Source: Patescibacteria group bacterium (lineage in GTDB: Bacteria > Patescibacteriota > Gracilibacteria > UBA1369 > UM-FILTER-53-11). From it: a stretch of 56,491 nucleotides of DNA. The position numbers and the translations under genes were made by a program. The notes below the pieces were generated by a model. It ran no database searches. It was not told the origin of the DNA and saw only the letters and a list, made by a program, of their open reading frames with translations. Below are positions 13,272 through 44,164 of the stretch, one piece after another. The stretch spans positions 1 through 56,491 of the forward strand of contig JBBTWV010000002.1 of assembly GCA_038062615.1 (NCBI GenBank). The letters run 5' to 3'. Positions within the stretch are counted from its first letter, which is position 1; the number at the start of each line of letters is the position of its first letter.

Positions 13272-14023
13272 CTCGCCACACCAATTATCCCGCTCCCAAT
13301 TGTGGTTCCGGCGTTTGTAACAAATTCATAGGTATACATACCCGGTGAAACCGGCGTACTACTCGCATTTCGCCCATTCCAAGTGGCATAAATACTCTCG
13401 TTTGCGGGTAGAGATGTGGTCGCCGAATTGAGATTCTTCACAATGCGGCCTTGGCGATCAACTATCCTGAGTATATATCCGCCGGAAAAATCGGTATTAA
13501 ACCAATACCTGATGGTTGCCACGCTATTGGGCGATGAAAGGGAAATAGCATTGGTATCAACACTATGAGTGAGCAAGGAGGCGATGGCGATTTTCCCCGT
13601 GAGAAAAGAATTTGTTTGAGAACCGACAAAAAAACTATAGGTATATTGTCCGGCTCCATATGTTCTTCCTGCGGCGTTTTTGCCATTCCATTGAACGGTG
13701 TAATTCCCCGGCTCTACAGGAAGGTTCTTGCTCTCCACCAGAGATGCCGCTACTACTGCACCATACCTATCCATTACATCCAACCTTAAAGATGAAACGC
13801 GGCTAAGCACTTCATATTTGATTGTCACCGATTCGCCGGCCTGCGGGTAAAAAGTCGCCGGGTTGGCGCTGTGGCTTATGGAAGAAACTCTTGGCAGTAT
13901 CGGAATAGGCCGCAGTGCGCCTTTTTGTGATTTTGAACTTCCCAAATAAACGGCGGCGCCAATAACGGCGACAACAAGAATCCCCACAACTATTTGAATC
14001 ACATTTTTTGTATTTTGAGGCAT
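13268..14023 (-). CDS. Membrane-anchored protein with two beta-sandwich (FlgD-Ig-like) repeats
   Basis: N-terminal TM helix and two repeats (YTVQWNGKNAAGRTYGAGQYTYSF; ATWNGRNASSTPVSPGMYTYEF). It lies on the opposite strand between pyrC and pyrD. Confidence 0.6.
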   Translation of the reverse strand: MPQNTKNVIQIVVGILVVAVIGAAVYLGSSKSQKGALRPIPILPRVSSISHSANPATFYPQAGESVTIKYEVLSRVSSLRLDVMDRYGAVVAASLVESKNLPVEPGNYTVQWNGKNAAGRTYGAGQYTYSFFVGSQTNSFLTGKIAIASLLTHSVDTNAISLSSPNSVATIRYWFNTDFSGGYILRIVDRQGRIVKNLNSATTSLPANESIYATWNGRNASSTPVSPGMYTYEFVTNAGTTIGSGIIGVAS

Positions 14024-14122
14024 GCTCTTTTTATTAAGACAGTTTTACTATTTATATTCTACGCCATAATATGCAAATAGTCAAATTTGATCATTCCCAT
14101 GAATCACCCTACTCTGTAACAG

Positions 14123-15091
14123 ATGGTAAATCTTTCGGTAGAATTTTGCGGAGTGAAATTCAAAAATCCGCTTGTGCTGGCCTCGGGCATTTTGGGAATC
14201 ACCGCTTCTTCTTGGCGCAATGCCGTAAAACATGGCGCCGGCGGCGTAACCACCAAGTCGCTCTGGCTGCATGAGCACAAAGGGCATCGCAATCCGGTGA
14301 TTATTGCCAACGAACATTACATGCTCAATGCGGTGGGTGTTCCTGATGCCGGTACGCAAAAAGCGCAGGAAGAAATCGGGAAATTTTTGAAGTGGGGCGA
14401 GGCACCCATCATCGCCAATATTATTGCCGGGAGTGTTCATGATTTTGGTGAAACCGCAGAAGAAATTGCCCAAATTAAGCCAGATATTTTGGAGGTCAAT
14501 ATTTCTTGCCCCAATGTGGAAGATGAGTTTGGCAAGCCGTTTGCCTGTGTTGCGGGGGATGCGGCGCGTGTAACAAAAGAAGTCAAAAATCGCTTAGCCA
14601 AAATGAAGCTGAAAATTCCGGTGAGCGTAAAATTGTCACCAAATGTGGAAGACATTACCGAGATTGCCAAAGCGGTTGCGGATGCTGGTGCTGATGCACT
14701 TACGGTGATGAATTCTGCTGGGCCGGGCATGGCCATCAATATTGAAACCCGCATGCCGATTTTAGCCAATAAAGTTGGCGGCCTAACAGGGCCGGCCTTA
14801 AAACCGCTTGCGGTAAAGCTTATTTACGATATTCGCCGCGCCGGAATTAAAATTCCTATTATTGGAACCGGCGGCATACTTACCGGCCGTGATGCCATTG
14901 AGATGATGATGGTTGGAGCCACGCTTATTGGTATCGGCACCGGAGTTCATTATCGCGGCGTCGAAATCTTCAAAAAAATAACCGACGAGATGGAGGAGTG
15001 GTGCCAAGAAAATAAAGTTAAAAAAATTACCGATATTATCGGTTCGGTTCATGTCATTGCGAGCGCCGCAAAGCGGAGCGAAGCAATCTAG
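14123..15091 (+). CDS. pyrD: Dihydroorotate dehydrogenase, class 1B catalytic subunit
   Basis: NISCPN, GGLTGPALKP and IIGTGGI motifs. The last ~12 codons (VIASAAKRSEAI) and the stop codon lie inside repeat A1. Confidence 0.9.
   Translation: MVNLSVEFCGVKFKNPLVLASGILGITASSWRNAVKHGAGGVTTKSLWLHEHKGHRNPVIIANEHYMLNAVGVPDAGTQKAQEEIGKFLKWGEAPIIANIIAGSVHDFGETAEEIAQIKPDILEVNISCPNVEDEFGKPFACVAGDAARVTKEVKNRLAKMKLKIPVSVKLSPNVEDITEIAKAVADAGADALTVMNSAGPGMAINIETRMPILANKVGGLTGPALKPLAVKLIYDIRRAGIKIPIIGTGGILTGRDAIEMMMVGATLIGIGTGVHYRGVEIFKKITDEMEEWCQENKVKKITDIIGSVHVIASAAKRSEAI
15053..15091 (+). repeat. Family A repeat, left-half copy (A1)
   Basis: GTCATTGCGAGCG..AGCGAAGCAATCTAG matches the left arms of A2 and A3, with an extra CCGC-AAA-GCGG hairpin. 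Confidence 0.65.
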
Positions 15092-15112
15092 CTCGTCTCT
15101 AACACTTTTAGC

Positions 15113-15913
15113 TTGGATAACTTTCCTCACGCCGTTCGGATCAAAAAAATCATTAAAGAAACGCCGTTGGTGCGTTCCTACATTTTTGACTACCCGGTGC
15201 GCGCTCTGCCCGGCCAGTTTATTAATATTTGGATTCCGGGAGTTGATGAAAAACCGATGAGCGTAGCTTTTGATGATGGGAAAAGTTATACCCTGGCAAT
15301 TGCCGGAATTGGACATGGAACCCAGGAATTAGAAAAAAAGAAGGTGGGGGACTACATCGGCATTCGCGGTCCGTATGGAACGCACTTCACATGGAAGAAA
15401 AAAGAGCGCATCGCCATGCTAGCAGGAGGATACGGTGCTGGACCTCTCTATTTTGCCGCGGAGTTAGCGGTGGAAGAGGGGTGCCATGTGGATTTTTTCT
15501 TAGGAGCCCGCAGTAAAACGCATCTGCTTTTTGCCGACCGAATTCGCAAACTTAAAAACACGCGTTTTTTGCCATCTACTGATGATGGCTCCGCCGGTTT
15601 TAAAGGCTTCAACGTCGCCTGTTGGACGGAAAAAATGGAGGAAGGCGCCAAGTATGATCGCATTCTTACCTGCGGCCCGGAGCTTATGATGAAGAGCGTT
15701 TCGGATATCTCCTGGGGGAAAAAAATCCCCGCGCAAGTTTCTATTGAGCGCTATATGAAGTGCGGGTTTGGCATTTGCGGTAACTGCTGCGTGGATGATT
15801 TAGGTATTACCACCTGCCAAAACGGCACGGTGATGGATAATGCCGTGGCGCGTAAAATTAAGGAGTTTGGAGTTTATCATCGAGATTCCCTAGGCCGCAA
15901 ACATCAATTTTAG
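15113..15913 (+). CDS. pyrK: Dihydroorotate dehydrogenase electron-transfer subunit
   Basis: Ferredoxin-reductase-like fold and a C-terminal 2Fe-2S cysteine cluster, CGFGICGNCC. Apparent TTG start. Immediately follows pyrD. Confidence 0.85.
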   Translation: MDNFPHAVRIKKIIKETPLVRSYIFDYPVRALPGQFINIWIPGVDEKPMSVAFDDGKSYTLAIAGIGHGTQELEKKKVGDYIGIRGPYGTHFTWKKKERIAMLAGGYGAGPLYFAAELAVEEGCHVDFFLGARSKTHLLFADRIRKLKNTRFLPSTDDGSAGFKGFNVACWTEKMEEGAKYDRILTCGPELMMKSVSDISWGKKIPAQVSIERYMKCGFGICGNCCVDDLGITTCQNGTVMDNAVARKIKEFGVYHRDSLGRKHQF

Positions 15914-15921
15914 CAGGTACT

Positions 15922-15947
15922 TAGAGGGCTTAACGCATGCCCTTTAG
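15922..15947 (+). terminator. Possible intrinsic terminator after pyrK
   Basis: TAGAGGGC-9 nt-GCCCTTTA stem (one G-U pair) followed by a T-rich stretch. It sits between convergent genes. Confidence 0.35.
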
Positions 15948-15955
15948 AGAATTTT

Positions 15956-17773
15956 CTATTTTCTCTTTCTACGCTTTTTTTCCAAAGCAAGCTGGTCTTC
16001 TTGTTCTCTTCTGCGAATTTCTGCCCACGCTTCACTCGCTATTCCCTCTATTGGGAGCCTATCACCACGATTAATATGGGAATTACTAGAAAATCGGTAA
16101 CTCACCCTATTAAGTTCTTCCATAGTGAGATGGGTTTCAATAATATGGGTTTCCCAAAGATGATAGGCAACCGGAAAACTTCGCGTCCTCAAGAGTACAC
16201 CTAAAAGTGTCTTGTCAGCCTCCTCATCTGAATTTGCACAAGCTCTGATTCTGGCAACCGTGTTATCTATAAAAACGTTGTCGTGGTAACCGTCTGCCAA
16301 TTCTGCGGCAAGGTCGCGAGTTTTTTGCCATCCTCGTTCTTGGGCTTCTCGTCTCTGCACATCTTTGTGAGCTTCAAGAGATTTTGCGCGTCTTTGCAAA
16401 ATACTCGTAACATCTAATCCTCTTGCTCCACATGCTGTAACTGCTTCTTGCACAACACGTTCACTCGCCGCATACCGAGCGATTTCCGGCAACAATTCAT
16501 TCGTCAAAACGGCAGGGTAAATATTTTGAAGCACCATCCAAACCACTTCGCATGTTTCATCATCATCGCAATCTGCAAAAAAACTTTTCAGCATATGCAA
16601 ATTATCGGCACCTTGGCCAGTACACTCTATAATGGTGCCTAAAAGGTCGCACGCGGTAGCAGGGTGAGTAGCACGGATGAATTGTTTTACCAAGAAAGCA
16701 AGATGTATACCGGCATGTTCTGCGGTAGCATTTGCATACAATCTTCTGTTGATTGCCATATCATAATCAAAGGTCGGTTCGGTTCTTATTCTTTCGGCAC
16801 GGGCAAGGATAAAACTTCGGTAAACTGGAGATGCATCTCTCAAAACTCTTGTAACTTCCCTTTTACCGGTTCTCACTAATGCAGCACTTTTACTCACTGC
16901 CGCAACAGCTCTGTCGCCGGTATCATCCGCAACTGTCATAATATGAGGCGTTTCATCTGGAGCATCTCCCGGAGGATCCAGTCCCTGTTCGTAAAAACTT
17001 TCTTGGTAAGCAACCTCATCTTGCAAAGCTAAAAGATCTTTAAGCCGTGGAAAGTCCTGCATGTCACTGCCAACTTTTCTCAAAATTTGTTCGCCAACCT
17101 CTCTTTGTTCCTCATCAGGAAGTTGGAATTTATATTGTACTTTAATGGTGCCAAGTCTAGGACTCTCACCCAAATTGAGCGTTTCTTCAATCTCTTTCAA
17201 TAAATCAACAAATGCTTGAATCAGACGCTCTTCAAAATCTCTTCCTGGGGCTTTAGATTCCATGAGCATTCCCATGCTTATAACTGCCTGCGGAGGAACA
17301 GAAGTGTCACGTTTTACTGTTACCAGTTCTACAAATTTTGCTGGTATGGCGGTGGCTAAATCGCCTGCTTGGCGCTCACCGATGATATTGATAAGTTTTT
17401 CCAGAGTTATAATATCGTGTGTGGACAATACTTTCCCCCCTCTTTTGTCCCATTCAACCGTTTCGGTTTTTTCCATGGGTAAATGGAGTATCTCGCTTAT
17501 AGCGTAGTGTCCAGCAAGTTCACTGAACACAACACCATAATCAATTATGAGTAAGTCTATTTTTCGCATGGTTTCTCTATATGCCTCTAAAGAAGTCGGA
17601 TGTTTTTTTTGCTGTGCAACGAGTACTTGTATCTTGGTGGTAATTTCAACAATATTGCGGAGTGCCAGCATTAAGTACTCCAGCAGCAGTTGGAGCCGGT
17701 CGGGTATCTGATTTTCAAAAATGACTAAACGAGTCGCTCCAGATGGCGGGCTTTTATCGAGGCTTTTTCCCAT
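15956..17773 (-). CDS. Orphan 605-aa protein, cassette copy 1 (paralog of 21073-22731); function unknown
   Basis: Long ORF with a leaderless-type promoter. It shares conserved blocks with its paralog (TVEWDK, QAFVDLLK, YQESF, LHMLK.FF, ETCE.VW, FIDNTVARIRAC). I recognise no known catalytic motif. Confidence 0.75.
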   Translation of the reverse strand: MGKSLDKSPPSGATRLVIFENQIPDRLQLLLEYLMLALRNIVEITTKIQVLVAQQKKHPTSLEAYRETMRKIDLLIIDYGVVFSELAGHYAISEILHLPMEKTETVEWDKRGGKVLSTHDIITLEKLINIIGERQAGDLATAIPAKFVELVTVKRDTSVPPQAVISMGMLMESKAPGRDFEERLIQAFVDLLKEIEETLNLGESPRLGTIKVQYKFQLPDEEQREVGEQILRKVGSDMQDFPRLKDLLALQDEVAYQESFYEQGLDPPGDAPDETPHIMTVADDTGDRAVAAVSKSAALVRTGKREVTRVLRDASPVYRSFILARAERIRTEPTFDYDMAINRRLYANATAEHAGIHLAFLVKQFIRATHPATACDLLGTIIECTGQGADNLHMLKSFFADCDDDETCEVVWMVLQNIYPAVLTNELLPEIARYAASERVVQEAVTACGARGLDVTSILQRRAKSLEAHKDVQRREAQERGWQKTRDLAAELADGYHDNVFIDNTVARIRACANSDEEADKTLLGVLLRTRSFPVAYHLWETHIIETHLTMEELNRVSYRFSSNSHINRGDRLPIEGIASEAWAEIRRREQEDQLALEKKRRKRK

Positions 17774-17917
17774 AGGGTGTATTAAACACTAAATTGGCTA
17801 ATTAGTCAACTGGTCGTTTAACCTGTTAAATCTCGTCAAAATAGATCACCTGTGCAGAATTTATTGACGCTCAAACGCATAAGGGAGTAACATAAGGGTG
17901 TAATATTATTACACCCT
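17774..17917. promoter_or_regulatory. Divergent promoter/operator region of cassette copy 1
   Basis: Minus strand: TTGACT (17809-17804), 17 nt, TTTAAT (17786-17781), 7 nt, ATG. AGGG(T/A)GTAA-like motif at 17774-17783, 17882-17891 and 17895-17904, and inverted at 17908-17917. The last two form a 10-bp perfect palindrome that abuts the RHH ATG. Confidence 0.55.
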
Positions 17918-18253
17918 ATGAAGACCCCTTACCGTAAAAAAGTAAAATCAAAATACGCTATTAAGCTGAAGCATATTCCCGTTCTGCCTCCGCTTGGGTC
18001 GGGGTTGTTGTTAGGTAAGAAAGGGCCGCGCAAAAAAGTAAATTTCATGGTGGATCTCAATATTTTAGAAGGCATGAAAATTTTTGTGCCTTTTGGAGAT
18101 AGAAGCGACTTTGTGAATGATGCGGTGGCTTATGCGCTCAAAAAGGCTGCTCAGCGAGAAGCCATGGAATTTATGGATAAAGTTCGGAAAGAAGGGAAGT
18201 TACAGATGACCGACAAGGAGATTAAAGAAGCGATTAATTATGGCCGAAAATAA
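17918..18253 (+). CDS. Ribbon-helix-helix (CopG/VapB-like) antitoxin, copy 1
   Basis: RHH signature KKVNFMVDLNILEGM...GDRSDFVNDAVAYAL. Overlaps the downstream PIN gene by 14 nt. Confidence 0.8.
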   Translation: MKTPYRKKVKSKYAIKLKHIPVLPPLGSGLLLGKKGPRKKVNFMVDLNILEGMKIFVPFGDRSDFVNDAVAYALKKAAQREAMEFMDKVRKEGKLQMTDKEIKEAINYGRK

Positions 18254-18680
18254 ATCTCTCTTCGTCGTAGATGCCTCGGTTCTTTTGAAGTGGTATCTCA
18301 AAGAAGAAAATGATCAAGAACCCGCTTTGCAGCTGCAAACAGACTACCACTACGATAAGATTTCTCTCGCGATTCCGCACTATGCTTGGTCGGAGGTATT
18401 GAATACATTGGGAAGAAAAAAATCCTTTGATGAAGTACTTGCCTATTTTTCGCGTTATTTAGCCTTTGAAATACAGGAATATTCCATCACGCTTGAAATT
18501 GCAGCCGTGGCCATTGAACTTATGGAAAAGTTCCCTAATATAACCTTTTACGATGCCGGTTATCATGCTTTGGCGCTCCAAGAAGGAGGTACTTTTGTAA
18601 CCGCTGATGAAAAATATTTCCAAAAAACAAAAAAGCATGGCGGCATCATGCTCTTGAAAGACTACGGCAAGAAACGCTAG
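18240..18680 (+). CDS. vapC: PIN-domain (VapC-like) toxin, copy 1
   Basis: LFVVDASVLLKW, FYDAGYHALA and TADEKY supply the acidic PIN residues. 146 aa, translationally coupled to the RHH gene. Confidence 0.85.
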   Translation: MAENKSLFVVDASVLLKWYLKEENDQEPALQLQTDYHYDKISLAIPHYAWSEVLNTLGRKKSFDEVLAYFSRYLAFEIQEYSITLEIAAVAIELMEKFPNITFYDAGYHALALQEGGTFVTADEKYFQKTKKHGGIMLLKDYGKKR

Positions 18681-18700
18681 ACTGCCGCAGATGGGTAAGG

Positions 18701-18841
18701 AGTTCTCTAACAGGCCAAGCCGCAGCTCGAGCCAAGGCGAAGATGCCGAATCAAGAAGATTCGGCTTGGCTAAGCAATTAACTCGCCCAAATGATGCTAA
18801 GGCATCAAGCAGAGCAAGCGGCGATGAGGGCGAAACTTCGG
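18701..18841 (+). repeat. Family B nested-hairpin repeat (B1), inserted into a duplicated pyrE 5' fragment
   Basis: TAACAGGCCAAGCCG...CGGCTTGGCTAAGCAATTAACTCGCCC...GAGGGCGAAAC matches the reverse complement of B2-B4. It is absent from the otherwise identical site at 24035/24036. Confidence 0.7.
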
Positions 18842-18874
18842 CTCAAGAAATCGCCGTGTCTCCTTTGGAAAATT

Positions 18875-20317
18875 ATGAATCCTATTTCTCTCGCCGATTT
18901 TAAAACGGCCCATGAGCCAAGAGCTTACGTTAATTCGAGCATTCGCTTTCATCATGAATTCTCGCAGCGCGAACGTCTTAAAGCCGCGCAAAAAGCCGGC
19001 TGGAATGTTTTTCAATTTCCTTCAGAAATGCTGAAAGGAGGTGATCTGCTCTCCGATTCGGGAACAACGACCATGACGGTGGAACAAGTTGCCGCGATGT
19101 TTCTTGGCGATGAAGCTTACGGAAGCAATTACGGCTATTTCCAGCTTCTTGAAACTTTTGAAGAAGTATTCGGAATTCCTTCCCAACAAACTGAAGTTTT
19201 TTTCTTCCATCAAGGCCGGGCGGCCGAACATGCTCTCTTTTCACAAATTGGAAAATTTGGCGAGCACCTCATTATTCCCAGCAACGGTCATTTTGATACC
19301 ACCCGTGCCAACATAGAAAATAATCGCATTGCGGCAAAAGATTGTTTTTCGCCACAACTTCATTCAAAGCAAACGGCACCTTTTAAAGGAAATATGGATT
19401 TGGCGGTTTTAGAGCGGATTCTGCAGGAAAATTCCCAAAATATTCCTCTTGTTTATGTCACTATCACCAACAACAGCGGCGGCGGGCAGCCGGTTTCGCT
19501 GGCCAATATAAAGGCTGTAAGAAAACTTTGCGACCACTATGCTAAGCCGTTATTTTTGGATGCCTGCCGTTTTGCCGAAAACTCTTGGTTTATTAAAGCT
19601 CGCGAAAAAGAATACGCCGGCAGAACCGTCCGAAATATTGTAAAAGAAATTTTCGCCCTCTGCGACGGATTTACCATCTCTCTCAAAAAGGACGGCTTGG
19701 CCAACATGGGAGGTGCGCTTGTCATCAAAAAAAAGAGTCCGCTTGTAGGTGAGCATCCGCGCCTTTTAAATGATATTCGGGATCATCAAATTCTCACCGA
19801 AGGTCATCCCACCTACGGCGGCCTTTCCGGCCGTGACATTATGACGCTTTGTGTGGGGCTTAAAACGGCCGTTACCGAGCAGTATCTCAAAAGCCGCATC
19901 GGTTTGGTGCATGAATTCGGACGCATGCTTAAAAAGGCAAAAGTTCCCGTACTGGAACCTTTTGGCGGACATGCCATATATTTAGATATGGACAAATTTT
20001 TTGTTAAAACCAAGCATCAGCGTGCGGATTTTGGCGGTATTGCTTTCACCGGTTTGTTGCTCCTCAAGGGCGTTCGTCTTTGCGAACTCGGCGCTTTTGC
20101 TTTTGGGGAAAATCATCCTCATAATTTTGTCCGCGCGGCGGTTCCCCGCAATAAATACGAACTGGAAGATCTTGCCTATGTTGCCGATTGCATCCAGGGG
20201 CTTTATGAAAAACGCCGCGAAATTCCGCGGGCCGTTCCGGTATATGGCCGCGACTTAACACTTCGCCATTTTAAGGCGAGGTTTAAGCTGGAGGCTTTTT
20301 CCTCATTAGTTAGCTGA
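18875..20317 (+). CDS. Beta-eliminating lyase (tryptophanase / tyrosine phenol-lyase family), PLP-dependent
   Basis: DLLSDSGTTTM, GDEAYGS, HQGRAAEH, and a PLP-lysine context SLKKDGLANMGGAL resembling TnaA. The tracked ORF start (18791) runs through repeat B1, so the ATG at 18875 (MNPISLADF) is preferred. Confidence 0.85.
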   Translation: MNPISLADFKTAHEPRAYVNSSIRFHHEFSQRERLKAAQKAGWNVFQFPSEMLKGGDLLSDSGTTTMTVEQVAAMFLGDEAYGSNYGYFQLLETFEEVFGIPSQQTEVFFFHQGRAAEHALFSQIGKFGEHLIIPSNGHFDTTRANIENNRIAAKDCFSPQLHSKQTAPFKGNMDLAVLERILQENSQNIPLVYVTITNNSGGGQPVSLANIKAVRKLCDHYAKPLFLDACRFAENSWFIKAREKEYAGRTVRNIVKEIFALCDGFTISLKKDGLANMGGALVIKKKSPLVGEHPRLLNDIRDHQILTEGHPTYGGLSGRDIMTLCVGLKTAVTEQYLKSRIGLVHEFGRMLKKAKVPVLEPFGGHAIYLDMDKFFVKTKHQRADFGGIAFTGLLLLKGVRLCELGAFAFGENHPHNFVRAAVPRNKYELEDLAYVADCIQGLYEKRREIPRAVPVYGRDLTLRHFKARFKLEAFSSLVS

Positions 20318-20414
20318 TTTCTCCCTGTTAGGCTCTTAGGGAATCTCTGAAAAACATCTTGCAAGCTGCGATTATTGTATTTTGGCCGCAAACACCTATT
20401 CGCAAAATAAAAGT

Positions 20415-20443
20415 TTGCACTAACGCTGCTAGTGCGCTATAAT
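20415..20443 (+). promoter_or_regulatory. Promoter TTGCAC-17 nt-TATAAT with inverted repeat GCACTA/TAGTGC in the spacer; ATG 6 nt after the -10
   Basis: TTGCAC at 20415-20420, TATAAT at 20438-20443, ATG at 20450. Confidence 0.55.
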
Positions 20444-20449
20444 ACGCCT

Positions 20450-20677
20450 ATGTCGAATCTTACCATCCGTATCAATGAAAATTTAAAGAAGAAGGCTGCA
20501 AAAGAAGCAGGCAAGCTTGGCATATCCCTTACGTTTGTGGTGATTAATGCCCTTAACCATTTTATTGAATCACCTAAAATTACCATTGGCGAACCGGAAG
20601 ATGTTATGGTGACCCCTGATCTTCAAAAGAGCATGGATACCATTGGCAGGCTGATATCCAAAAAGCAGCGTAAATGA
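20450..20677 (+). CDS. RelB/DinJ-type ribbon-helix-helix antitoxin
   Basis: MSNLTIRINENLKKKAAKEAGKLGISLTFVVINAL is typical of an RHH N-terminus. Its stop overlaps the next ATG (ATGA). The tracked GTG start at 20432 lies inside the promoter. Confidence 0.7.
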   Translation: MSNLTIRINENLKKKAAKEAGKLGISLTFVVINALNHFIESPKITIGEPEDVMVTPDLQKSMDTIGRLISKKQRK

Positions 20678-21072: not shown

Positions 21073-22731
21073 TCAGGAAGCTTTTGGCTTTCGCCTGTCA
21101 ATTTCCGCACTTGCTTCTTTCCATATCTCATCGCACGGATGCTTACCACCCCAAGGATTAAATCTTTCTGTGACTTTATCAAGTTCTTCATCGCTCATGT
21201 GTGATTCAATGATATGCTTTGACCACAAATACCAGGCCGTGTACAGGTTGGTATGCAGCAATACATTTACAAGAATTTTTCTGGCTTCTTCCTCGGAAGT
21301 TGTGCAAGCCCTTATTCTTGCCACCGTGTTATCAATGAATTTTCCGTCAGGTTCCTTGTCCCTCAACTCGGCGGTAAGGTCGCGAATTTTTTTATAATTT
21401 CTATCTCGAGCTTCCTGGCTCTTAACCTCACGGTGTGCCACAAGTGATCCTGCACGTTTTTCTAAAATGCTCTCGGCGTCCAGTCCTCTTGTCCGACATT
21501 CGGCGATGGCGGCCTGGGCAACGCGATCGCTCGTGGTATATAGGGCTATCTCTGCCAACAGCTCGTTCGTCAAAACAGGCTCATAATTTTGCAATTCATC
21601 CCAGACTGCCTCACACGTTTCTAGATCTTCACACCAAACAAAGAAAGTTTTTAGCATGTGCAGAAAGTCCGTGCCTTCATCAAAAGATTCCATGATCATG
21701 TGGAGGAGCGCACATGCGGAATAGGCATGGGTCGCGGCATGGAACTGGTCTACTAAGAATGTCCGATGTAAGCCTACATGCTCCTCGGTTGCTGTGGCAT
21801 GCCATTCTCTCGCTACTCCTCGATAATAATCAAAGGTGATTTCAGTTCTGATGCTTTGTGCACGGGCTAACATGAACCTTTGATATGGAGGAGATACGGC
21901 GGCGAGCACTTCAAGGACTTGTCTTCTCCCATGATTCACCAAGGCAGAGCTTTTATCCACAACCGCAAGAGCGCTCTCGCCAACTCCTTCCGTCATGGAT
22001 GCAATATCGGCGGTTTCATAAGTGGGCTCCGCAGGAGGTTCCATCCCTTGCTCCAAAAAACTTTCCTGGTAGGTAAGGCTATCTCTCAAATCCAAAAGAT
22101 CGCCTATCCTTGGAAATTCCTCAGTATTGCTACCAACTTTTTGTAAAATTCTTTCGGCAACGCGTCTTCGCTCATCATCATCCATTTTAAATTTATAGCG
22201 CGTTTCTATAATTCCTATCGCCGGTCTCCTACTATGGAGGTTGTTCTCAATCTGCTTGAGTAAATCAACAAATGCTTGAGTGAGCCGTTCCGCAAAATCT
22301 TTTTCTGGAGTGTAAGGTTTCATATCCATATCGGTGGATAGTGGTCTAAGCTTTTGGCGGTGCACAGCCAAGTCCACAAAGTCTTGCGGTGCATGGACCG
22401 TAAGGTTGGAAACCTGCTGCTCACTTATTAATTTCAAAACAGTTCCGATAGTTGAAATATCTTTTGTAGATATTACTTTTTCGCCTATTTTGTCCCATTC
22501 AACGGTTCGAATTTCTTCCATTTGCAAATTCAGTATTTCGCCAACAGCGTAATGTCCCACCAGCATGCTCATTTCGAGGCTATAATCAGCTATTAGGTTA
22601 TTAATTTCCAATATGGTTTTTTGATATGCAGTTAAGGTAGTTGGGTGTTCTCTTTGCTCTGTTACAAGTTTTTGTGCGGTCGTAGAGATTTCGATGAGTT
22701 TTCTCATCCCTCTTATTAAATAATTCAGCAA
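21073..22731 (-). CDS. Orphan protein, cassette copy 2 (paralog of 15956-17773), N-terminally disrupted by a frameshift
   Basis: 552-aa ORF from an internal TTG. The homologous ATG is at 22781 in another frame. One extra C in the C5 run (22755-22759) would restore MDKPSGETPQIPDKLEPLLNYL, which aligns with copy 1. Confidence 0.7.
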   Translation of the reverse strand: MLNYLIRGMRKLIEISTTAQKLVTEQREHPTTLTAYQKTILEINNLIADYSLEMSMLVGHYAVGEILNLQMEEIRTVEWDKIGEKVISTKDISTIGTVLKLISEQQVSNLTVHAPQDFVDLAVHRQKLRPLSTDMDMKPYTPEKDFAERLTQAFVDLLKQIENNLHSRRPAIGIIETRYKFKMDDDERRRVAERILQKVGSNTEEFPRIGDLLDLRDSLTYQESFLEQGMEPPAEPTYETADIASMTEGVGESALAVVDKSSALVNHGRRQVLEVLAAVSPPYQRFMLARAQSIRTEITFDYYRGVAREWHATATEEHVGLHRTFLVDQFHAATHAYSACALLHMIMESFDEGTDFLHMLKTFFVWCEDLETCEAVWDELQNYEPVLTNELLAEIALYTTSDRVAQAAIAECRTRGLDAESILEKRAGSLVAHREVKSQEARDRNYKKIRDLTAELRDKEPDGKFIDNTVARIRACTTSEEEARKILVNVLLHTNLYTAWYLWSKHIIESHMSDEELDKVTERFNPWGGKHPCDEIWKEASAEIDRRKPKAS

Positions 22732-22935: not shown

Positions 22936-23268
22936 ATGAACACCCCCCGCAAAAAAGTAAAAGCCAAATACGCTATCAAACTCAAACATTTTCCTGTTTG
23001 TCCTCAATTTGGATCTGCGTTTTTTGGCTCAGGGAAAAGACCTCGGAAGAAAGTAAATTTTATGGTGAATATGGATCTTTTGGAAGCCATAACATTTTTG
23101 GTCCCTTCGGGTAGCAGGAGCGAATTTGTAAATGAAGCCGTGGAAGAAGCTCTCAGGGATTTTGCCCGAAGAAAAGCAATAGAGGCGATGGATGAATTTC
23201 GTAGGAAAAATAAATGGAAAATGACGGACGAAGAAATTCGTAAAGCTATCAATTATGGTCGCAAATAG
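22936..23268 (+). CDS. Ribbon-helix-helix (CopG/VapB-like) antitoxin, copy 2
   Basis: Paralog of 17918-18253 (KKVNFMVNMDLLEAI...GSRSEFVNEAVEEAL). Intact. Confidence 0.8.
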   Translation: MNTPRKKVKAKYAIKLKHFPVCPQFGSAFFGSGKRPRKKVNFMVNMDLLEAITFLVPSGSRSEFVNEAVEEALRDFARRKAIEAMDEFRRKNKWKMTDEEIRKAINYGRK

Positions 23269-23695
23269 GCCGCTCTTCATTGTTGATGCCTCTGTGATTT
23301 TAAAGTGGTTCCTCTTTGAGCCGGATTCCCAGGAACAGTCACTCCATCTCCGGCGAGATTATTTTGAGAGGAAGGTGGAGCTAGCTGTTCTTAACTATAC
23401 TTATGCTGAAATTTTGAATACTTTAGGGCGAATTCTCCCCCAAGAGAAAGCGCTTTCGGCCTTTTCTCAGCTGTTGATGTATCAATTGCAGTAATACCAT
23501 ACCACTATGGAATTAGCTTCGATGGGTTGCGAACTCATGAAGAATTTTTCTGGTGTCACCTTTTATGATTCTGGTTATCATGCCTTGGCTCTACAGGAAG
23601 GTGGCACATTTATAACCGCCGATGAAAAATATTTCCAAAAAACAAAGAAACAAGGCGGGGTAATGCTCTTGAAAGACTACGGCAAGAAACGCTAG
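23255..23695 (+). pseudogene. vapC: PIN-domain toxin, copy 2, interrupted by an in-frame TAA at 23492-23494
   Basis: The two ORFs 23255-23494 and 23507-23695 are in the same frame and align collinearly with copy 1. The TAA aligns with GAA (Glu) of copy 1. Confidence 0.75.
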
Positions 23696-24011
23696 GAGCT
23701 GTACGCCTTTTGCAATAATTATTTTTTATTTAATAATCCACAGGCGATAGCAAAACCTGCGCTTATTATGGCTATTCCTATGCTTGCACTTGCTGGTGCA
23801 TTTTCCCAAAGCCAAAGCGGAGCCGTTACTATATTTGCTGCAAAAAATATTGAAAGGAAAAAATAAATTTTGTGCATAAATTTAATGAAATAAAATACAA
23901 CAGTTGGTATTTTATCCTTTTTTACTATGGCGTACAACATCCGCGCCACTCGTGCCTAGAATCCAGATCTGCTAGAATACAACCATCCCAAGCTCGTTAT
24001 GCTAACAGCTC
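23696..24011. mobile_element. 316-bp insertion with 7-bp terminal inverted repeats (GAGCTGT/ACAGCTC) flanked by duplicated CTAG
   Basis: Copy 1 reads ...GAAACGCTAG|ACTGCCGCAGATG. Copy 2 reads ...GAAACGCTAG|GAGCTGT...ACAGCTC|CTAG|ACTGCCGCAGATG. Confidence 0.55.
23719..23949 (-). CDS. Small two-TM hydrophobic protein carried on the 316-bp insertion
   Basis: 76-aa ORF with two hydrophobic helices (IYFFLSIFFAANIVTAPLWLW; IGIAIISAGFAIACGLL) in a region that looks AT-rich by eye. Confidence 0.45.
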   Translation of the reverse strand: MARMLYAIVKKDKIPTVVFYFIKFMHKIYFFLSIFFAANIVTAPLWLWENAPASASIGIAIISAGFAIACGLLNKK

Positions 24012-24025
24012 CTAGACTGCCGCAG

Positions 24026-24676
24026 ATGAACAAGGCTCAAGAAATCGCCAAAATCCTACTCGACATCGGGGCTGTGAAGGTGAGCATGGATCCGCCGTTT
24101 ACGTGGACCTCTGGCATAAAATCTCCGGTATATTGTGATAACCGCAAACTTATTTCGCATCCCAAAGAGCGGCAGGCGGTGGTAAAAGCATTCGCTGATT
24201 TGGTGCGCGAAAAAAAACTGGATCCGGAATATATTGGCGGAACCGCCACGGCGGCCATTCCTTGGGCGGCATTTTTGGCTTATGAGCTCAACTTACCCAT
24301 GGTGTATATTCGTCCGGAAAAAAAGGAACACGGTGCGGGCCGGCAAGTGGAAGGGGATCTGCCGCCTGGCAAACGCGTCCTCATTGTGGAGGATCTTATT
24401 TCTACCGGTGGATCTTCGGTAAATGCGGCTAAAGCCGTACAGCAAGAATGCCAAGGCGTGGTTACGGATGTGCTTGCGATTGTTACTTACGAATTAGATG
24501 AAGCTCAGCAAAAATTCCAGGAATCCGGTTTGCATATTTCTACGCTTACGAATTTTTCAAATATTATCGGTTTGGCGCTTGAGCGCGGGAATATTACACA
24601 AGAACAATGGGGAAAAATTTTGGAATTTAGAAAAAATCCAAGAAGTTGGTTTTCAGTTTTTGGGCTGGAATCATAG
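24026..24676 (+). CDS. pyrE: Orotate phosphoribosyltransferase
   Basis: PRPP-binding motif VLIVEDLISTGGS and TSGIKSPVYCDNR. The ATG at 24026 (MNKAQEIA) is preferred over the tracked start at 23999, which lies inside the insertion. Confidence 0.9.
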   Translation: MNKAQEIAKILLDIGAVKVSMDPPFTWTSGIKSPVYCDNRKLISHPKERQAVVKAFADLVREKKLDPEYIGGTATAAIPWAAFLAYELNLPMVYIRPEKKEHGAGRQVEGDLPPGKRVLIVEDLISTGGSSVNAAKAVQQECQGVVTDVLAIVTYELDEAQQKFQESGLHISTLTNFSNIIGLALERGNITQEQWGKILEFRKNPRSWFSVFGLES

Positions 24677-26154: not shown

Positions 26155-26954
26155 AGGGAAGAGAAATGCGCGAGCTTTTCCCACTCTTCAATACTCAGTG
26201 TTTCCGCGCGGCGTGTTAGTTCAATTCCGGCTTTTTTTAAAAGTTCTACGTCAAAAACGCCGCGAAGCATTTTTCGTTTGTGTGAGAATCCGCGGTGTAT
26301 ATTTTCGAAATAAGTTTTTTGCGCGACACTCGTCGTAGCTTGGTCGTGCGTCGCCGCCGGAAATTCAATTTTCAAAATAGCGGAATCCACTTTAGGCACC
26401 GGTTTAAAATTCCTGCGGGAAACAATCTTCATAATTTTAGGCACGCCAAATGTCTGTACATGAAGGGCTAAGACGTTCATGTGCGGCGGCGACGCGCATA
26501 TTTTTTCGGCAACTTCCTTTTGCACCAAAAGAACGGCACGCTGCGGAAGATTATTACTTTTACGAATAAAATGATCCAGTAGCGGAGAAGTAATGGAATA
26601 GGGAATATTGGCCACCCAGTAATAGGGGACTTGCGGTGGAGGCACATCCAGCGCATCGGCATGAATCAATTCCAAATTCCGATGCGTGTCGCGGCAAGCG
26701 GCCGCGGCTAAATTCTTCTGCATGCCAAATTCGGCTTGGAGGTGCGCAAAAAGATGGTTATCCTTTTCAATCGCTTTCACTTTCACGTTGCGCGCAAGAA
26801 GAGCCGAGGTAAGAATCCCAAATCCTGGCCCCACCTCCACCACCAATGCTCCCGCAGGAAGATCGGCGTACTGCAAAATTTTCTCCACGATCATGGGTTG
26901 GATAAGAAAATTTTGACCGAAAGATTTTTTAGGATGAAATTCGCGCAGTTGCAT
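26151..26954 (-). CDS. rsmA: 16S rRNA (adenine1518/1519-N6)-dimethyltransferase
   Basis: KKSFGQNFL, VEVGPGFG (SAM site) and NIPYSITSP. Confidence 0.9.
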   Translation of the reverse strand: MQLREFHPKKSFGQNFLIQPMIVEKILQYADLPAGALVVEVGPGFGILTSALLARNVKVKAIEKDNHLFAHLQAEFGMQKNLAAAACRDTHRNLELIHADALDVPPPQVPYYWVANIPYSITSPLLDHFIRKSNNLPQRAVLLVQKEVAEKICASPPHMNVLALHVQTFGVPKIMKIVSRRNFKPVPKVDSAILKIEFPAATHDQATTSVAQKTYFENIHRGFSHKRKMLRGVFDVELLKKAGIELTRRAETLSIEEWEKLAHFSSL

Positions 26955-29727
26955 AATTCCTTTGAAAAAACTTGCGAACTTCTTCTACAAAAAGCATAGA
27001 AAAAGAAATAATCGCCAGTACTCCCCACTGGCTCCACGTCAGTGCCATCGTCTTAAAATACGTGTGAAAGAATGGGATCTGCACGATAGCTACCGTGGCC
27101 CCAATAGAAAACGAAATTGCCGCTAGGAGACTTGGGTTTTCAAAGAACTTCATTTTAAAGACGGATATGGTTTCGCTGCGGCTGTTGAAAACATGAACCA
27201 TTTGTAGCAAGGTAAGGACCACAAAGGCCATCGTTGCTGACTCAAAATAAAGCGTGCTTTCAATATCCACATTCCCACCAAAACTCCAGCCGTTTGCGAT
27301 GAGATTTCCTACGAACACCGCTGCCGTGGTAAGCCCAATCCAAAGCCCGCTTAACATGAATCGGCGGACAAAAGCCCCTTCCATAATTCTAACGTTTGTT
27401 TTGCGCGGAGGGCGTTCAAGAATATCTTTGTGTACGGGTTCCACGCTCAAGGCAAGAGAAGGGAAGACGTCGGTAAGCGTGTTAATCATGAGGATGAGGA
27501 CGGCCGTGAGAGGTGCCGGTAGTGCCAGCAGAATGGTAGAAAAAATAGCGATGAGCTCGCCGATGTTGGAAGAAAAAATAAAGAAAATAAATTTTCGCAT
27601 ATTTTCGTAAATGGTTCGTCCTTCAATGATCGCCGTTACGATAGTTTTAAAACTGTCATCCGCTAAAACCATATTGGCAGCTTCTTTGCTCACATCGGTG
27701 CCGGTAATACCCATGGCGATGCCAATGTCTGCTCGCGCGAGCGACGGCGCGTCATTTACGCCGTCGCCGGTTACCGCCACCACTTCGCCGGCACGCTTGA
27801 GGGTGTCCACAATACGGAGTTTATGTTCCGGGCTCACGCGTGCAAAAATAGTTTCTTGCCCTTTTGCCACAAAGTCCAAAAGTTTCTCATCAGAAATTTT
27901 ATCCAGCATTTCTCCGGTAAGAATGTGCACTCCAAACGATTTCACGAGCCCCAGTTCTTTAGCAATGGCATGAGCAGTGAGTCCGTGATCACCGGTAATA
28001 ATAAATACGCGAATGCCGGCTTTGTGGGTCAATTTAATGGCTTCTTTAACCTCTTCTCGGGGAGGGTCAATCATAGCCATAACTCCCAAAAAAATGAGGT
28101 TCGACTCAATTTCTTTCTCCTCATAATGTTTTTTATTCGGCACGGAAATTTTCTTATAAGCCACGGCAATAGTTCTCAGGGCACGATTGGCCATGAGATC
28201 CGTTCGCTTGAGGAGCTCCTCCCGAAGAGTGGCATCGAGCGGAACCATTTTATCGCCCTTCATCATATGGCTGCAGAGGGGTAAAAGCCCATCCGGAGCA
28301 CCTTTGGTAAAAGCCAAAACTTCTCCCGTTGCCCGTTCTTTTACGACAAGAGACATGCGTTTGCGCCCGGCATCAAACGGAATCTCTTGAATCCGCTCAT
28401 ATTTTTTATGTATTTCTTCAGTCACAAAACCGGCTTTCTCAGCCGCTGTAAGTAGTGCCCCTTCGGTAGGATCTCCCAAAATGGACCAGGTATCATCCTT
28501 ATTCACCAGCTTGGCATTATTGTTAAGGATGTTTGTGGTCATGGCCAGTTCCAGATGTTGGTAAAATGCGGGCTGTTCCTTTGTAAGTTTTTTTTGATTT
28601 TCATGATCGAATTCAAAATATTCCAATAGGCCGAGCCGTGGCGAGGCTAAGCCAATACTGCCCCGACCTGATGTCGGGGAAACCTTCTCTTTGGCTCCTG
28701 AATGATGAACAGAAAAGCCTCCCTTGGGTTCATAGCCGATTCCGCGGACCGTAACATCATAATCTCCCAAAAAGATCTCCTGGACCGTCATCTCATTTTT
28801 GGTGAGAGTGCCTGTTTTATCGCTGCAAATAACCGTTGTGGAGCCAAGCGTTTCTACGGAAGAAAGCTGTTTAACAATGGCATTTTCTTTAGCCAGCCGC
28901 TGTACTCCGAGCGCTAGCGCCACCGTAATGGTTGCCGGAAGGCCTTCTGGTACCGCCGCCACAGCGACGGCAACCGCAAAGAGAATGGTATCAATCAGTT
29001 CTCGACCTTGTATAAAAAACCCAATGAGAAAAAGAACGAGCGAAAGTACAAGCGTAATTTTCCCTACAAAAACTCCAAGATGGATTAGTTCTTTTTGCAA
29101 AGGACTCTTATCCTTTTCTGTTTCACTCGTGAGGCGGGCAATCTTTCCAAATTCAGTATGCATGCCAGTTTGCATCACCACCGCCTGGCCGTTGCCATGC
29201 GTCACCTGCGTTCCCATAAATATTTTTTTATTTTTCTGAGAATCTTTCCTTACCGGCACCGACTCACCCGTTAAAATGGCTTCATCAACGCGAATATCGT
29301 GATCCTCAAGAATATGCCCATCCGCCGGTATTTTATCGCCTTCATTTAAAATAATGATATCGCCGGGTACAAGTTGAGTGGCATCAATGAGGATCTCGGT
29401 GCCGTCGCGCTTCACTCGCGCTTTGGGTGAGAGCAATTTTTTAAGAGCGCTAATGGCTTTCTCTGCTTTATATCCCTGAATAAACCCAATACTGGCATTC
29501 AAAATAACGATGCCGATGATAATGGAACCATCAATTTTTTCTCCGGCGATGTAAGCAAAAGCGGCCGCCACGATCAAAATAATTACGAGCAGATCTTTAA
29601 ATTGCGCAAAAAATTGCAGAATGAGCGGAGTCCTCCGCTTTTCTTGTATAAGATTGAGACCGAATTTCTTAAGAAGCGAGGCGGCTTCAACCGAGGTAAG
29701 TCCGGTCGTCAGATTTTTTTCTTTCAT
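26929..29727 (-). CDS. P-type (P2, Ca2+/cation-transporting) ATPase
   Basis: TGES, the DKTGTLT phosphorylation site and the TGDGVNDAP hinge. 932 aa with about 10 TM segments. Confidence 0.9.
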   Translation of the reverse strand: MKEKNLTTGLTSVEAASLLKKFGLNLIQEKRRTPLILQFFAQFKDLLVIILIVAAAFAYIAGEKIDGSIIIGIVILNASIGFIQGYKAEKAISALKKLLSPKARVKRDGTEILIDATQLVPGDIIILNEGDKIPADGHILEDHDIRVDEAILTGESVPVRKDSQKNKKIFMGTQVTHGNGQAVVMQTGMHTEFGKIARLTSETEKDKSPLQKELIHLGVFVGKITLVLSLVLFLIGFFIQGRELIDTILFAVAVAVAAVPEGLPATITVALALGVQRLAKENAIVKQLSSVETLGSTTVICSDKTGTLTKNEMTVQEIFLGDYDVTVRGIGYEPKGGFSVHHSGAKEKVSPTSGRGSIGLASPRLGLLEYFEFDHENQKKLTKEQPAFYQHLELAMTTNILNNNAKLVNKDDTWSILGDPTEGALLTAAEKAGFVTEEIHKKYERIQEIPFDAGRKRMSLVVKERATGEVLAFTKGAPDGLLPLCSHMMKGDKMVPLDATLREELLKRTDLMANRALRTIAVAYKKISVPNKKHYEEKEIESNLIFLGVMAMIDPPREEVKEAIKLTHKAGIRVFIITGDHGLTAHAIAKELGLVKSFGVHILTGEMLDKISDEKLLDFVAKGQETIFARVSPEHKLRIVDTLKRAGEVVAVTGDGVNDAPSLARADIGIAMGITGTDVSKEAANMVLADDSFKTIVTAIIEGRTIYENMRKFIFFIFSSNIGELIAIFSTILLALPAPLTAVLILMINTLTDVFPSLALSVEPVHKDILERPPRKTNVRIMEGAFVRRFMLSGLWIGLTTAAVFVGNLIANGWSFGGNVDIESTLYFESATMAFVVLTLLQMVHVFNSRSETISVFKMKFFENPSLLAAISFSIGATVAIVQIPFFHTYFKTMALTWSQWGVLAIISFSMLFVEEVRKFFQRNYATARISS

Positions 29728-36522: not shown

Positions 36523-36535
36523 AAAAAATTTGAGT

Positions 36536-36627
36536 GGTTGCGCCCTTCAGGCGCAGTTATTGGTTTAGCCTCGCTAGAGTCATCTATGCAGATGACATGA
36601 TGCTGAGGCATCAGGCTCGGCCTGTTA
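36536..36627 (-). repeat. Family B nested-hairpin repeat (B2) filling the rpsM-rpsK spacer
   Basis: GGTTGCGCCCTTCAGGCGCAGTTATTGGTTTAGCCTCGC...GGCTCGGCCTGTTA. The TTA at 36625-36627 is the complement of the rpsM stop codon. Confidence 0.7.
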
Positions 36628-36999
36628 CTTCGTTACCTTTTTCTTGTTGGCTACCGTTACGCGTTTGCCTTTTCTTGTGCGGGCATTCGTTTTTGTTCGC
36701 TGGCCGCGCACCGGCAGACGTCTTCGATGGCGAAGTCCGCGGTAGCATCCAATCTCCTGGAGTCGTTTGATATCCAGTTGAACTTTGCGGCGAAGATCTC
36801 CCTCAACCGGCATTTTGGCAATATATTCACGCACCTTATTAAGATCTACTTCATTGAGATCCTTCATCTTCACATCCTTATTGATGTTTAAATCCGTAAG
36901 AATGCGCTTAGAGACGGACCTCCCAATGCCATAGACGAGCGTCAGTCCTGCTTCAATGCGTTTGTTGTCTGGAATATTTACACCTGCGATTCGAGCCAT
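36625..36999 (-). CDS. rpsM: 30S ribosomal protein S13
   Basis: [28 protein letters not shown]... Confidence 0.9.
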
Positions 37000-43754: not shown

Positions 43755-43767
43755 AAGGGATTTAAAT

Positions 43768-43825
43768 GGTCGCGCCCTTCGGGCGCATTACTTGCTTAGC
43801 CTCGCCTCGACGGCTCGGCCTGTTA
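43768..43825 (-). repeat. Family B repeat (B3) filling the rplX-rplE spacer
   Basis: TGGTCGCGCCCTTCGGGCGCATTACTTGCTTAGCCTCGCCTCGACGGCTCGGCCTGTTA. The terminal TTA is the complement of the rplX stop codon. Confidence 0.7.
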
Positions 43826-44164
43826 AACTTTCTTCGTGTGTTTTTTCTCAACGGCTTTATCGAGGCTTTGAGAACATTTTTTGCAGACGCGCTGCTTCTT
43901 TCCTGTCTTAAGAACAATGTGGCCCACGCGCGTTGCTTTAGAACAGTGTGGACAAATCACCATGACGTTAGAGATATCAAACGGAGCTTCAAAAGTGATT
44001 TTCTGGCCAGCTTGATCGGCTTTACGCTTAATATGTTTGACGCGCATGTTGATCTTCTCAACGACGGCTTTACGATGTTTTTCGCTGACACGCATGACCT
44101 TTCCGGATTTTCCGCGATACTTTCCGGCAATTACCAACACATTGTCGCCCGTATGAACTTTCAT
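43823..44164 (-). CDS. rplX: 50S ribosomal protein L24 (with CxxC...CxxC pattern in the C-terminal part)
   Basis: [29 protein letters not shown] motif, and [11 protein letters not shown]...VCKKCSQ. Confidence 0.9.

Follow-up and report, generated by a model that had tools for sequence, protein, structure and literature searches.

How the first codons of pyrE came to lie twice in one pyrimidine gene cluster, once intact and once broken by 141 nt, is the question raised by contig JBBTWV010000002.1, the complete 56,491-nt contig of a metagenome-assembled genome (MAG) that originates from Hainich groundwater metagenomes, carries the NCBI label Patescibacteria group, and has its nearest protein relatives among Candidatus Peregrinibacteria. 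The whole contig is referred to here as the window. The broken copy, or remnant, lies between a VapC-like toxin gene (PIN1) and a tryptophanase-like lyase gene, and the segment that splits it (B1) was assigned to a family of short, two-hairpin repeats, termed family B. Two separate events at 18557-18855 probably account for it: an ectopic conversion patch that copied the start of pyrE behind PIN1, and a later insertion of B1 into that copy.

The duplication can be read directly from the sequence. The 17-mer CTAGACTGCCGCAGATG occurs exactly twice in the window (18677-18693 and 24012-24028), with no match in 100 shuffles even when two mismatches were allowed, and GGCTCAAGAAATCGCC is also present twice (18840-18855 and 24034-24049). 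The two pyrE-like blocks are collinear and on the same strand, and the distance between them is 141 nt greater at 18.7 kb than at 24.0 kb. After the PIN1 stop codon (TAG, 18678-18680) the remnant reads ACTGCCGCAG ATG GGT AAGG, 141 nt, CTCAAGAAATCGCC, while the genuine pyrE gene, identified by the Pfam family Pribosyltran and by synteny, begins with ACTGCCGCAG ATG AAC AAGG CTCAAGAAATCGCC, uninterrupted. On either side of the insertion point the remnant equals pyrE over 4 nt on the left (AAGG) and 14 nt on the right, and the sole difference is codon 2 (GGTAAGG in the remnant, AACAAGG in pyrE), where all three bases have changed. The boundary of the insert can be placed in three ways, within 2 nt, since GG is found on both sides (18699-18839, 18700-18840, or 18701-18841). 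An alternative register, with the insert placed after ATG-AAC and the AAC duplicated, was rejected, as it leaves 15 nt on the left without explanation, demands further changes on the right, and is less parsimonious than three substitutions and one insert. The shared identity also reaches further left, where 43 nt (18651-18693) equal 23666-23695 joined to 24016-24028, that is, the second copy minus a 316-nt spacer.

The breaks of the Logan unitig contigs at 18677 and 23666, which coincide exactly with the shared 30-mer, raised the question whether the match is fortuitous or a short repeat was mis-assembled. The probability of either is practically negligible, given exact, collinear matches of 17 and 16 nt where none are expected. 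In addition, an independent ENA contig (L004) spans the whole junction (12348-20604), with a lone mismatch at its very edge (20596), so a single faulty assembly does not explain the junction, and the sequence GGTAAGGAGTTC... directly after the shared block is unique, which means that no alternative path in the assembly graph could have produced it. An earlier note on this DNA had proposed that a 5' fragment of pyrE was duplicated and split by 141 nt, and had named flanking identity at chance level as a finding that would overturn the idea; the exact blocks bear the proposal out. Its translation was also correct: the remnant reads MGK, 47 residues, and AQEIA, against MNKAQEIA in pyrE, with the frame kept through the insert (open reading frame, ORF, 18691-18903). 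Taken alone, preservation of the frame is weak evidence, because each orientation of the element has one open frame, which a random insertion would hit one time in three.

The 141-nt segment is composite. From left to right it comprises a left end, TAACAGGCC; hairpin 1, GCCAAGCC/GGCTTGGC (18714-18721 / 18763-18770), with about 40 extra loop nt that include GCCGAATC/GATTCGGC; a linker, GGCTAAGCAATTAAC; hairpin 2, TCGCCC/GGGCGA (18783-18788 / 18828-18833), with a 39-nt loop insert; and the tail AACTT. Its predicted fold has a free energy of -55.5 kcal/mol (z=-2.9). A covariance model (CM R1) was trained on 14 copies from other genomes together with the window copies B3, B4, and B5, leaving out B1 and B2. 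Searched with filters off, it recovered five copies in the window, B3, B5, and B4 plus the two it had not been trained on, and matched B1 over 18704-18795 (26.5 bits; window-wide E=3.7e-6). The second hairpin and tail of B1 lie past the 39-nt loop insert and were matched to the family by eye. B1 reads in the open sense frame of the family, as NRPSRS...AKQLTRP...GET. For comparison with relatives, a metagenome scan with PyrE gave 47 loci, and the window proteins were compared with 39 of these by tblastn. All 10 orthologous pyrE starts were contiguous at the B1 site, so the uninterrupted state is ancestral. By these comparisons, both the membership of B1 in family B and the polarity of the change, a gain of sequence in the remnant, can be regarded as demonstrated. 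The view of the earlier note that the 141 nt are an insertion of the same family as the repeats of the ribosomal operon was thereby upheld by the model match and the intact orthologues, as was its description of an internal pair of sites, with 18677-18855 filled and 24012-24049 empty, the latter being the ancestral state.

The family itself is well defined. Copies are about 57-65 nt long, non-coding, and consist of two hairpins, with the consensus (T/C)AA(C/T)AGGCCGAGCC - loop - GGCTAAGCMAWTAAY - GC-rich hairpin - AACC(T/A)T. Hairpin 1 is kept by sequence and hairpin 2 by structure; compensatory changes occur at 5/6 pairs of hairpin 2 (97.8% paired; reached by 0/500 shuffles), as counted in an alignment fitted to the model. 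Each orientation has exactly one stop-free frame, the other two containing stops. The sense frame always specifies (N)RPSRSEAKQ(I/L)xRPxGA, and the antisense frame KVAPxxRINCLASLRLGL. With one open frame per orientation, copies survive either between a stop and the next start in operons or as in-frame insertions of 20-25 aa in housekeeping proteins, and the window contains both kinds. B2-B4 lie in the sense orientation of the operon, with the TAA of their TAACAGG motif serving as the stop codon of the preceding gene; each occupies the entire stop-to-start gap at its place in the ribosomal-protein operon. B5 is a 20-21-aa insert in a variable loop of a P-type ATPase, ahead of the conserved GDPTE motif, and was present in 1/40 of the closest ATPase sequences, that of the window itself; 39/39 homologues and syntenic orthologues were without it.

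Outside the window, a motif pattern scan of 185,579 species-representative genomes gave 11, 3, and 2 exact-pattern matches in three MAGs of Peregrinibacteria/Peribacteria, and only scattered, chance-level matches elsewhere. CM R1 found 21 copies in 112 kb of loci from those three MAGs, several of them in-frame inside genes for TsaD, FolD, pyrroline-5-carboxylate reductase (P5CR, ProC), Der/EngA, sigma-70 region 2, and an RlmI-like methyltransferase (identified by Pfam; loci in JACPMA01, JACRID01, and CAYHNW01). With the same model, the 39 pyrE loci of relatives gave no copies, nor did 71 kb of the nearest relatives searched with filters off. Family B behaves as a dispersed insertion found in several genomes of Candidatus Peregrinibacteria, a lineage of the candidate phyla radiation (CPR), with in-frame copies in genes, and this dispersed and lineage-specific distribution is what an element that is or was mobile, as the earlier note supposed, predicts. 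Rfam returned nothing at gathering score for the window as a whole and nothing at E<=1 for B1 or the B3/B4 region, and the family was not described in the literature searched, including the Peribacteria genome paper. A role as intrinsic terminators was ruled out, as the repeats have no T-tail.

Where the pyrE fragment came from is best approached through the contents of the pyrK-pyrE gap. First comes cassette C1, made up of a minus-strand ORFan of 605 aa, an antitoxin-like gene of 111 aa, and PIN1; the remnant with B1 follows, and after it the tryptophanase-like lyase, a RelB-like gene, and a gene of 126 aa. Cassette C2 is next, with a 552-aa paralogue of the ORFan, a 110-aa gene, and PIN2, and the 316-nt spacer then leads to pyrE. 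PIN2 is interrupted by an in-frame TAA at codon 80 (23492-23494) and is a pseudogene, while its 110-aa partner gene is still open. A single segmental duplication could have made both cassettes and carried eight codons of pyrE with them, B1 entering one copy afterwards, which is how the earlier note explained the fragment. In both cassettes PIN does come last, with the same 5' sequence of pyrE behind it, and an exhaustive HMMER search of 1.84 billion representatives with the 605-aa protein returned its 552-aa paralogue as the sole homologue, indicating that the cassettes are paralogues of one lineage. Their divergence, however, tells against the idea. C1 and C2 share 63% nt identity (in windows of 100 nt, 50-67% with an increase to 83% at the 3' end) and their synonymous divergence (dS) is saturated, yet the last 66 nt differ at one codon only; a neutral 34-nt remnant as old as the cassettes should show about 12 differences. 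Within PIN1 and PIN2, the proportion of synonymous differences falls from 0.81 in codons 1-100 to 0.35 in codons 121-146, and is followed by 43 identical nt.

PIN1 itself is phylogenetically incongruent. A relative, L094, carries a C1-type antitoxin and PIN (76% identical to PIN1, 46% to the N-terminal part of PIN2). Nucleotides 1-300 of PIN1 are 74-80% identical to the L094 gene and 54-58% to PIN2, while nucleotides 361-441 are 91% identical to PIN2 and 69% to L094. The ratio of informative sites uniting PIN1 with L094 to those uniting it with PIN2 switches from 93:28 upstream to 3:26 downstream of a breakpoint best placed at PIN1 nt ~318 (window ~18557; Fisher p=3.5e-11). In L094 the PIN gene is followed by 9 nt, the lyase, and then pyrE, with no pyrE fragment. 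Taken together, the absence of the fragment from L094, the site switch within PIN1, and the age of the cassettes mean that the fragment arrived later than the cassettes. The claim that the cassette duplication brought the pyrE codons was therefore abandoned, and the segmental duplication is considered very unlikely. In two other relatives, L045 and L046, PIN or just its last 30 codons is followed by the stop codon, 10 nt, and the ATG of pyrE, without a spacer, so this spacer-free junction is ancestral.

The duplication of the fragment and the recombination breakpoint are established; which event came first, and in which direction the conversion ran, we infer as follows. A non-reciprocal patch of about 160 nt, with the PIN2-pyrE junction as its template, would have been laid onto the PIN1-lyase junction, either by ectopic gene conversion or by template switching during break repair or replication. 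It would have overwritten the last ~125 nt of PIN1, and copying would have run 34 nt past the end of PIN homology, through the 10-nt spacer, the pyrE ATG, and eight codons, before it ended in an illegitimate joint at 18855/18856, some 19 nt upstream of the lyase start; a dead 5' piece of pyrE would have remained. A composite 141-nt family-B copy would then have entered this fragment between pyrE codons 3 and 4 and, independently, a 316-nt element would have entered the donor junction at CTAG. The patch lacks the spacer and the donor lacks B1, so B1, the spacer, and probably the nonsense codon of PIN2 postdate the patch.

Ectopic conversion between paralogues is known to run past a boundary of homology. 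The patch resembles such conversions in being short and non-reciprocal, with a sharp breakpoint in one paralogue, in running into the flank of the donor, and in ending at a non-homologous joint. Unlike a canonical, two-ended conversion, its right end has no homology, and this would call for a putative end-joining or template-switch step. A different route would begin with two alleles: DNA of a sibling strain arranged pyrK-C1-pyrE would have recombined with a resident pyrK-lyase-...-C2-pyrE locus, one crossover being homologous and the other illegitimate in pyrE codon 8 (homology-facilitated illegitimate recombination), leaving tandem cassettes and a pyrE stump. The pyrK-pyrE interval is indeed a hotspot with varying content in nearly every relative, the lyase directly follows pyrK in L045, and 13 nt upstream of the lyase start in the window resemble L045 sequence that is there the 3' end of pyrK. 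That resemblance, however, amounts to only ~13/21 nt and is not significant, and the 19 nt upstream of the lyase were accordingly rejected as a pyrK remnant. The adjacency of a C1-type PIN and the lyase in L094 is also probably old, and the breakpoint in PIN1 is not predicted unless an earlier recombination is added, so the two-allele route is unlikely.

On the donor side of the conversion model lies the 316-nt spacer, an AT-rich segment which has CTAG on both sides and ends in 7-bp inverted repeats. It is absent from the copy-1 patch, L045, and L046, so that copy 1 represents its internal empty site, and it has the look of a separate insertion of transposon type. A second copy was absent from the window and from all loci compared. 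Its minus strand encodes a hydrophobic 76-aa ORF that belongs to no family. The 3' end of PIN may carry a promoter for a leaderless downstream gene, as a consensus scan located a promoter-like site there, and pyrE in L045 and L046, like the lyase start in L094, has the same arrangement ahead of it. The site overlaps coding sequence, and its conservation may come from coding alone. If it is a promoter, the lyase would have gained a copy of it, upstream, through the conversion patch. The 316-nt spacer parts pyrE from the promoter-like -35 element. No sign of a function was seen for the remnant or B1.

Several observations weigh against this history of patch and later insertion. The CM score of B1 is modest because nested inserts break its hairpin 2, and the covariation that supports the family was counted, as noted, on a fitted alignment. 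At the left end of B1, 7-11 nt (AGTTCTC, before TAACAGG) are unaccounted for by the family consensus, and no further copies of this filler, GGAGTTCTCTAAC, were found. The difference of three adjacent bases at codon 2 (GGT for AAC), amid otherwise identical flanks, means that the site saw more than one clean insertion. A remnant allele without B1 was absent from all contigs examined, and contigs of the same population were all identical. Part of the 43-nt identity could reflect constraint and not recency, because the block overlaps the promoter-like motif and the conserved PIN C-terminal coding sequence. Lastly, no mark of an insertion mechanism was found: no consistent direct repeat that could be a target-site duplication (TSD) was found in the flanks of 19 aligned copies, only a bias to C at -1; the filled and empty sites of B1 share only GG; the ends of family B, CAGGCCGAGCC... 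and ...GCGCAACCTT, do not form an inverted pair, as terminal inverted repeats (TIRs) would; and no transposase, including RAYT (REP-associated tyrosine transposase) and IS200-type TnpA, was present among the window ORFs scanned with Pfam.

These features give some weight to a single, complex event of microhomology-mediated, replication-based template switching, which would have made all of 18557-18855 at once, so that B1 would be a copied patch and not a transposition. The path would run from the 3' end of PIN2 through 24 nt of pyrE, a family-B copy elsewhere, and 14 nt of pyrE to the joint upstream of the lyase. The junctions, with a 2-nt microhomology (GG) only and no TSD, would suit such a path, as would the unexplained filler at the left end and the cluster of three changes beside the junction, and the locus has demonstrably had one template-guided run-off event. 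Three switches would be needed, however, with a precise return to the next base of pyrE; the window contains no composite copy identical to B1 that could have been the source; and the 21 foreign copies together with the genic B5 favour a general insertion process over isolated accidents of repair. A single event is therefore regarded as distinctly unlikely, and a patch followed by a separate insertion of B1 is preferred.

Table 1. Coordinates of the pyrE copies, the proposed conversion patch, the repeats, and the adjoining lyase gene in the window
Feature	Position	Strand	Remarks
Left half of pyrE 5' remnant	18681..18700	+	10-nt upstream spacer, ATG (18691-18693), GGT AAG G
Right half of pyrE 5' remnant (CTCAAGAAATCGCC)	18842..18855	+	codons 4-8; pyrE homology stops abruptly at 18855
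Genuine, uninterrupted pyrE junction ('empty site' of B1)	24012..24049	+	CTAG, 10-nt spacer, ATG (24026-24028), codons 2-8
Remnant ORF, 70 codons	18691..18903	+	runs through B1 in the only open sense frame of the family; overlaps lyase start in another frame
B1, 141-nt net insert	18701..18841	+	family-B-homologous core 18708-18838
B2, between S13 and S11	36529..36631	-	nested hairpins in loop 1; CM 43-49 bits; TAA (36625-36627) is the S13 stop
B3, between L24 and downstream gene (ORF 43212-43754)	43761..43829	-	CM 72.8 bits; TAA is the L24 stop
B4, after L16	45023..45092	-	CM 59.5 bits; TAA is the L16 stop
B5, in-frame and antisense in P-type ATPase gene (26929-29727, -)	28620..28691	+	CM 64.8 bits; encodes KVSPTSGRGSIGLASPRLGLL
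PIN1 3' part, homogenised with PIN2 (left part of patch)	18557..18680	+	VapC-like toxin gene 18240-18680; last 30 nt equal 23666-23695
PIN2 3' part (donor side of patch)	23554..23695	+	PIN2 gene 23255-23695, pseudogene
316-nt AT-rich insertion at donor PIN2-pyrE junction	23696..24011	+	CTAG on both sides; ends GAGCTGT...ACAGCTC (7-bp inverted)
Promoter-like TTGAAA-N18-TAGACT in PIN 3' end	18654..18683	+	consensus scan; ends 7 nt before remnant ATG
Family Y module ATGATGCTAAGGCATCAAGCAGAGCAAGCGGCGATGA, 37 nt	18791..18827	+	nested in B1 hairpin 2; 89% identical to 36386-36422 (-)
Tryptophanase / tyrosine phenol-lyase-like gene	18875..20317	+	NCBIfam PRK13238, 466 bits

The loop insert of B1 hairpin 2 contains a member of a second, smaller repeat, family Y (~37 nt), which encodes DDAQASxRASG(E)DE. 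The related copy at 36386-36422 (-) sits in an N-terminal extension of ~65 aa of ribosomal protein S11, and a further one is in-frame near the C-terminus of PyrF in L094 (4659-4685). The hairpin of this family, TGATGCYNAGGCATCA, occurs at three sites in the window against 0.17 expected, one of them partly within the loop of B2 (36598-36613). Two-copy repeats with short hairpins were also seen at 41876-41931 / 55781-55836 (79% identity) and 47911-47942 / 51075-51106 (91%); lying at gene boundaries in the ribosomal-protein/EF region, they may represent further small repeat families.

The wider locus is a conserved pyrimidine cluster with a variable interior. The window carries carA, pyrB, pyrC, pyrD, pyrK ... 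pyrE, pyrF, and the order pyrC-pyrD-pyrK-pyrE-pyrF-<ksgA-<ATPase was kept across the 39 loci, with the pyrK-pyrE gap as an insertion hotspot whose cargo differs in nearly every lineage. Across Peregrinibacteria (loci L045-L083), the intervals between pyrK, pyrE, and pyrF ranged from ~15 nt to several kb, again with lineage-dependent cargo. The closest homologues of the lyase and the ATPase are 75% and 68% identical, respectively. The true start of the lyase is 18875, as orthologues align from M-N-P and the NCBI call is 480 aa; mechanically called ORFs begin at 18791 within B1 and cross the pyrE remnant in another frame, and the ENA contig call does likewise (507 aa). In other relatives the tryptophanase-like lyase is found in unrelated contexts, such as between PdxS-like (SOR_SNZ) and PdxT-like (SNO) genes in L093. 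The 605-aa (15956-17773, -) and 552-aa (21073-22731, -) cassette proteins share 50% aa identity and had no matches in Pfam, NCBIfam, or PADLOC, and a word-indexed search returned the cluster of the query alone. Among the 1.84 billion representatives, each had the other as its sole homologue. They are locus-restricted ORFans beside VapBC-like modules, and nothing about them hints at a recombinase. The window contains no tRNA or tmRNA gene. A 51-nt tandem, proline-rich coding repeat was noted at 3931-4032, within an SLH/GH18-like surface protein gene.

As a working guess, the mobilisation of family B may depend on its hairpins as single-stranded DNA, through an HUH-type enzyme acting in trans or through template switching. 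It is also conceivable, if doubtful, that families B and Y spread without any transposase, by hairpin-provoked template switching or short-patch ectopic conversion, a process of the same kind as the run-off copying that put the pyrE start behind PIN1. Were this so, selfish hairpins would be colonising the essential genes of minimal genomes and adding peptide segments to their products. If the present picture is confirmed genome-wide, it would reveal in CPR protein annotations a source from which lineage-specific inserts and wrongly called gene starts arise systematically, and the locus would serve as a relative clock, where two insertions and one nonsense mutation after one conversion imply recent activity.

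Several groups of known bacterial elements share traits with family B. Repetitive extragenic palindromic (REP) sequences are imperfect palindromes of 20-40 nt with a GTAG or CGTC tag (PMC3733652). As in REPs and bacterial interspersed mosaic elements (BIMEs), which are associated with RAYT (TnpA-REP, an IS200/IS605-like HUH enzyme), family B has short, GC-rich hairpins in an AT-richer genome and no TSD, lies between co-directional operon genes right after stops, and conserves the structure of hairpin 2 over its sequence. Unlike REPs, it has no GTAG/CGTC tag beside either hairpin in the consensus, is neither confined to extragenic space nor arranged in inverted doublets (REPINs), and has no RAYT gene in the window. 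MITEs (miniature transposable elements with inverted repeats) that occur within bacterial genes include Correia/NEMIS, ERIC, BOX, and the Coxiella QMITE (review PMC10969869). Family B resembles them in being small and non-autonomous, with stable stem-loops that can give stop codons and in-frame fusions and are tolerated inside operons, but MITEs are defined by TIRs and TSDs, and the 19 family-B copies showed neither.

The PATE-like elements derived from IS200/IS605 have subterminal hairpins at both ends, leave no TSD, and insert 3' of a fixed tetra- or pentanucleotide; the two hairpins of family B and its lack of a TSD would fit, and its left flanks are variable (TAAC in 4/5 window copies, NNNC elsewhere). 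The nesting of very small hairpins that insert into one another recalls heterocyst-forming cyanobacteria, where Elhai et al. are said to have described, in 2008, nested small dispersed repeats that were recognised by comparing filled with empty sites. Those belong to another phylum and have other sequences, and in-frame genic insertion is not salient among them.

The closest parallel lies with the Rickettsia palindromic elements (RPEs), palindromic repeats found between genes and in-frame within them (Ogata et al. 2000 Science 290:347; 2002 Genome Res 12:808, via PMC10969869). Family B is placed outside the MITEs and REPs by the differences given above, and is best termed an RPE-like analogue. 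Compared with RPEs as they are summarised in that review, it is likewise dispersed, palindromic, and without coding capacity of its own, occurs both between genes and in-frame in unrelated housekeeping genes, adds a conserved peptide in variable or loop regions, is lineage-specific in a host with a small genome, and lacks TSDs, TIRs, and a known transposase. The differences, within the same summary, are that its host belongs to the CPR/Peregrinibacteria and that of RPEs to the Alphaproteobacteria, that it is less than half the size (~57-65 versus ~100-150 nt), and that it is built of two hairpins and a linker, with smaller hairpin modules nested in the loops. Kinship in sequence with the RPE families is not to be expected. 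An unrelated, much smaller, two-hairpin element behaves like RPEs in Peregrinibacteria, a CPR lineage with ~1-Mb genomes, and genome-wide confirmation would make it a second, independent system in which to study by what route such elements insert and what makes reduced genomes tolerate them.

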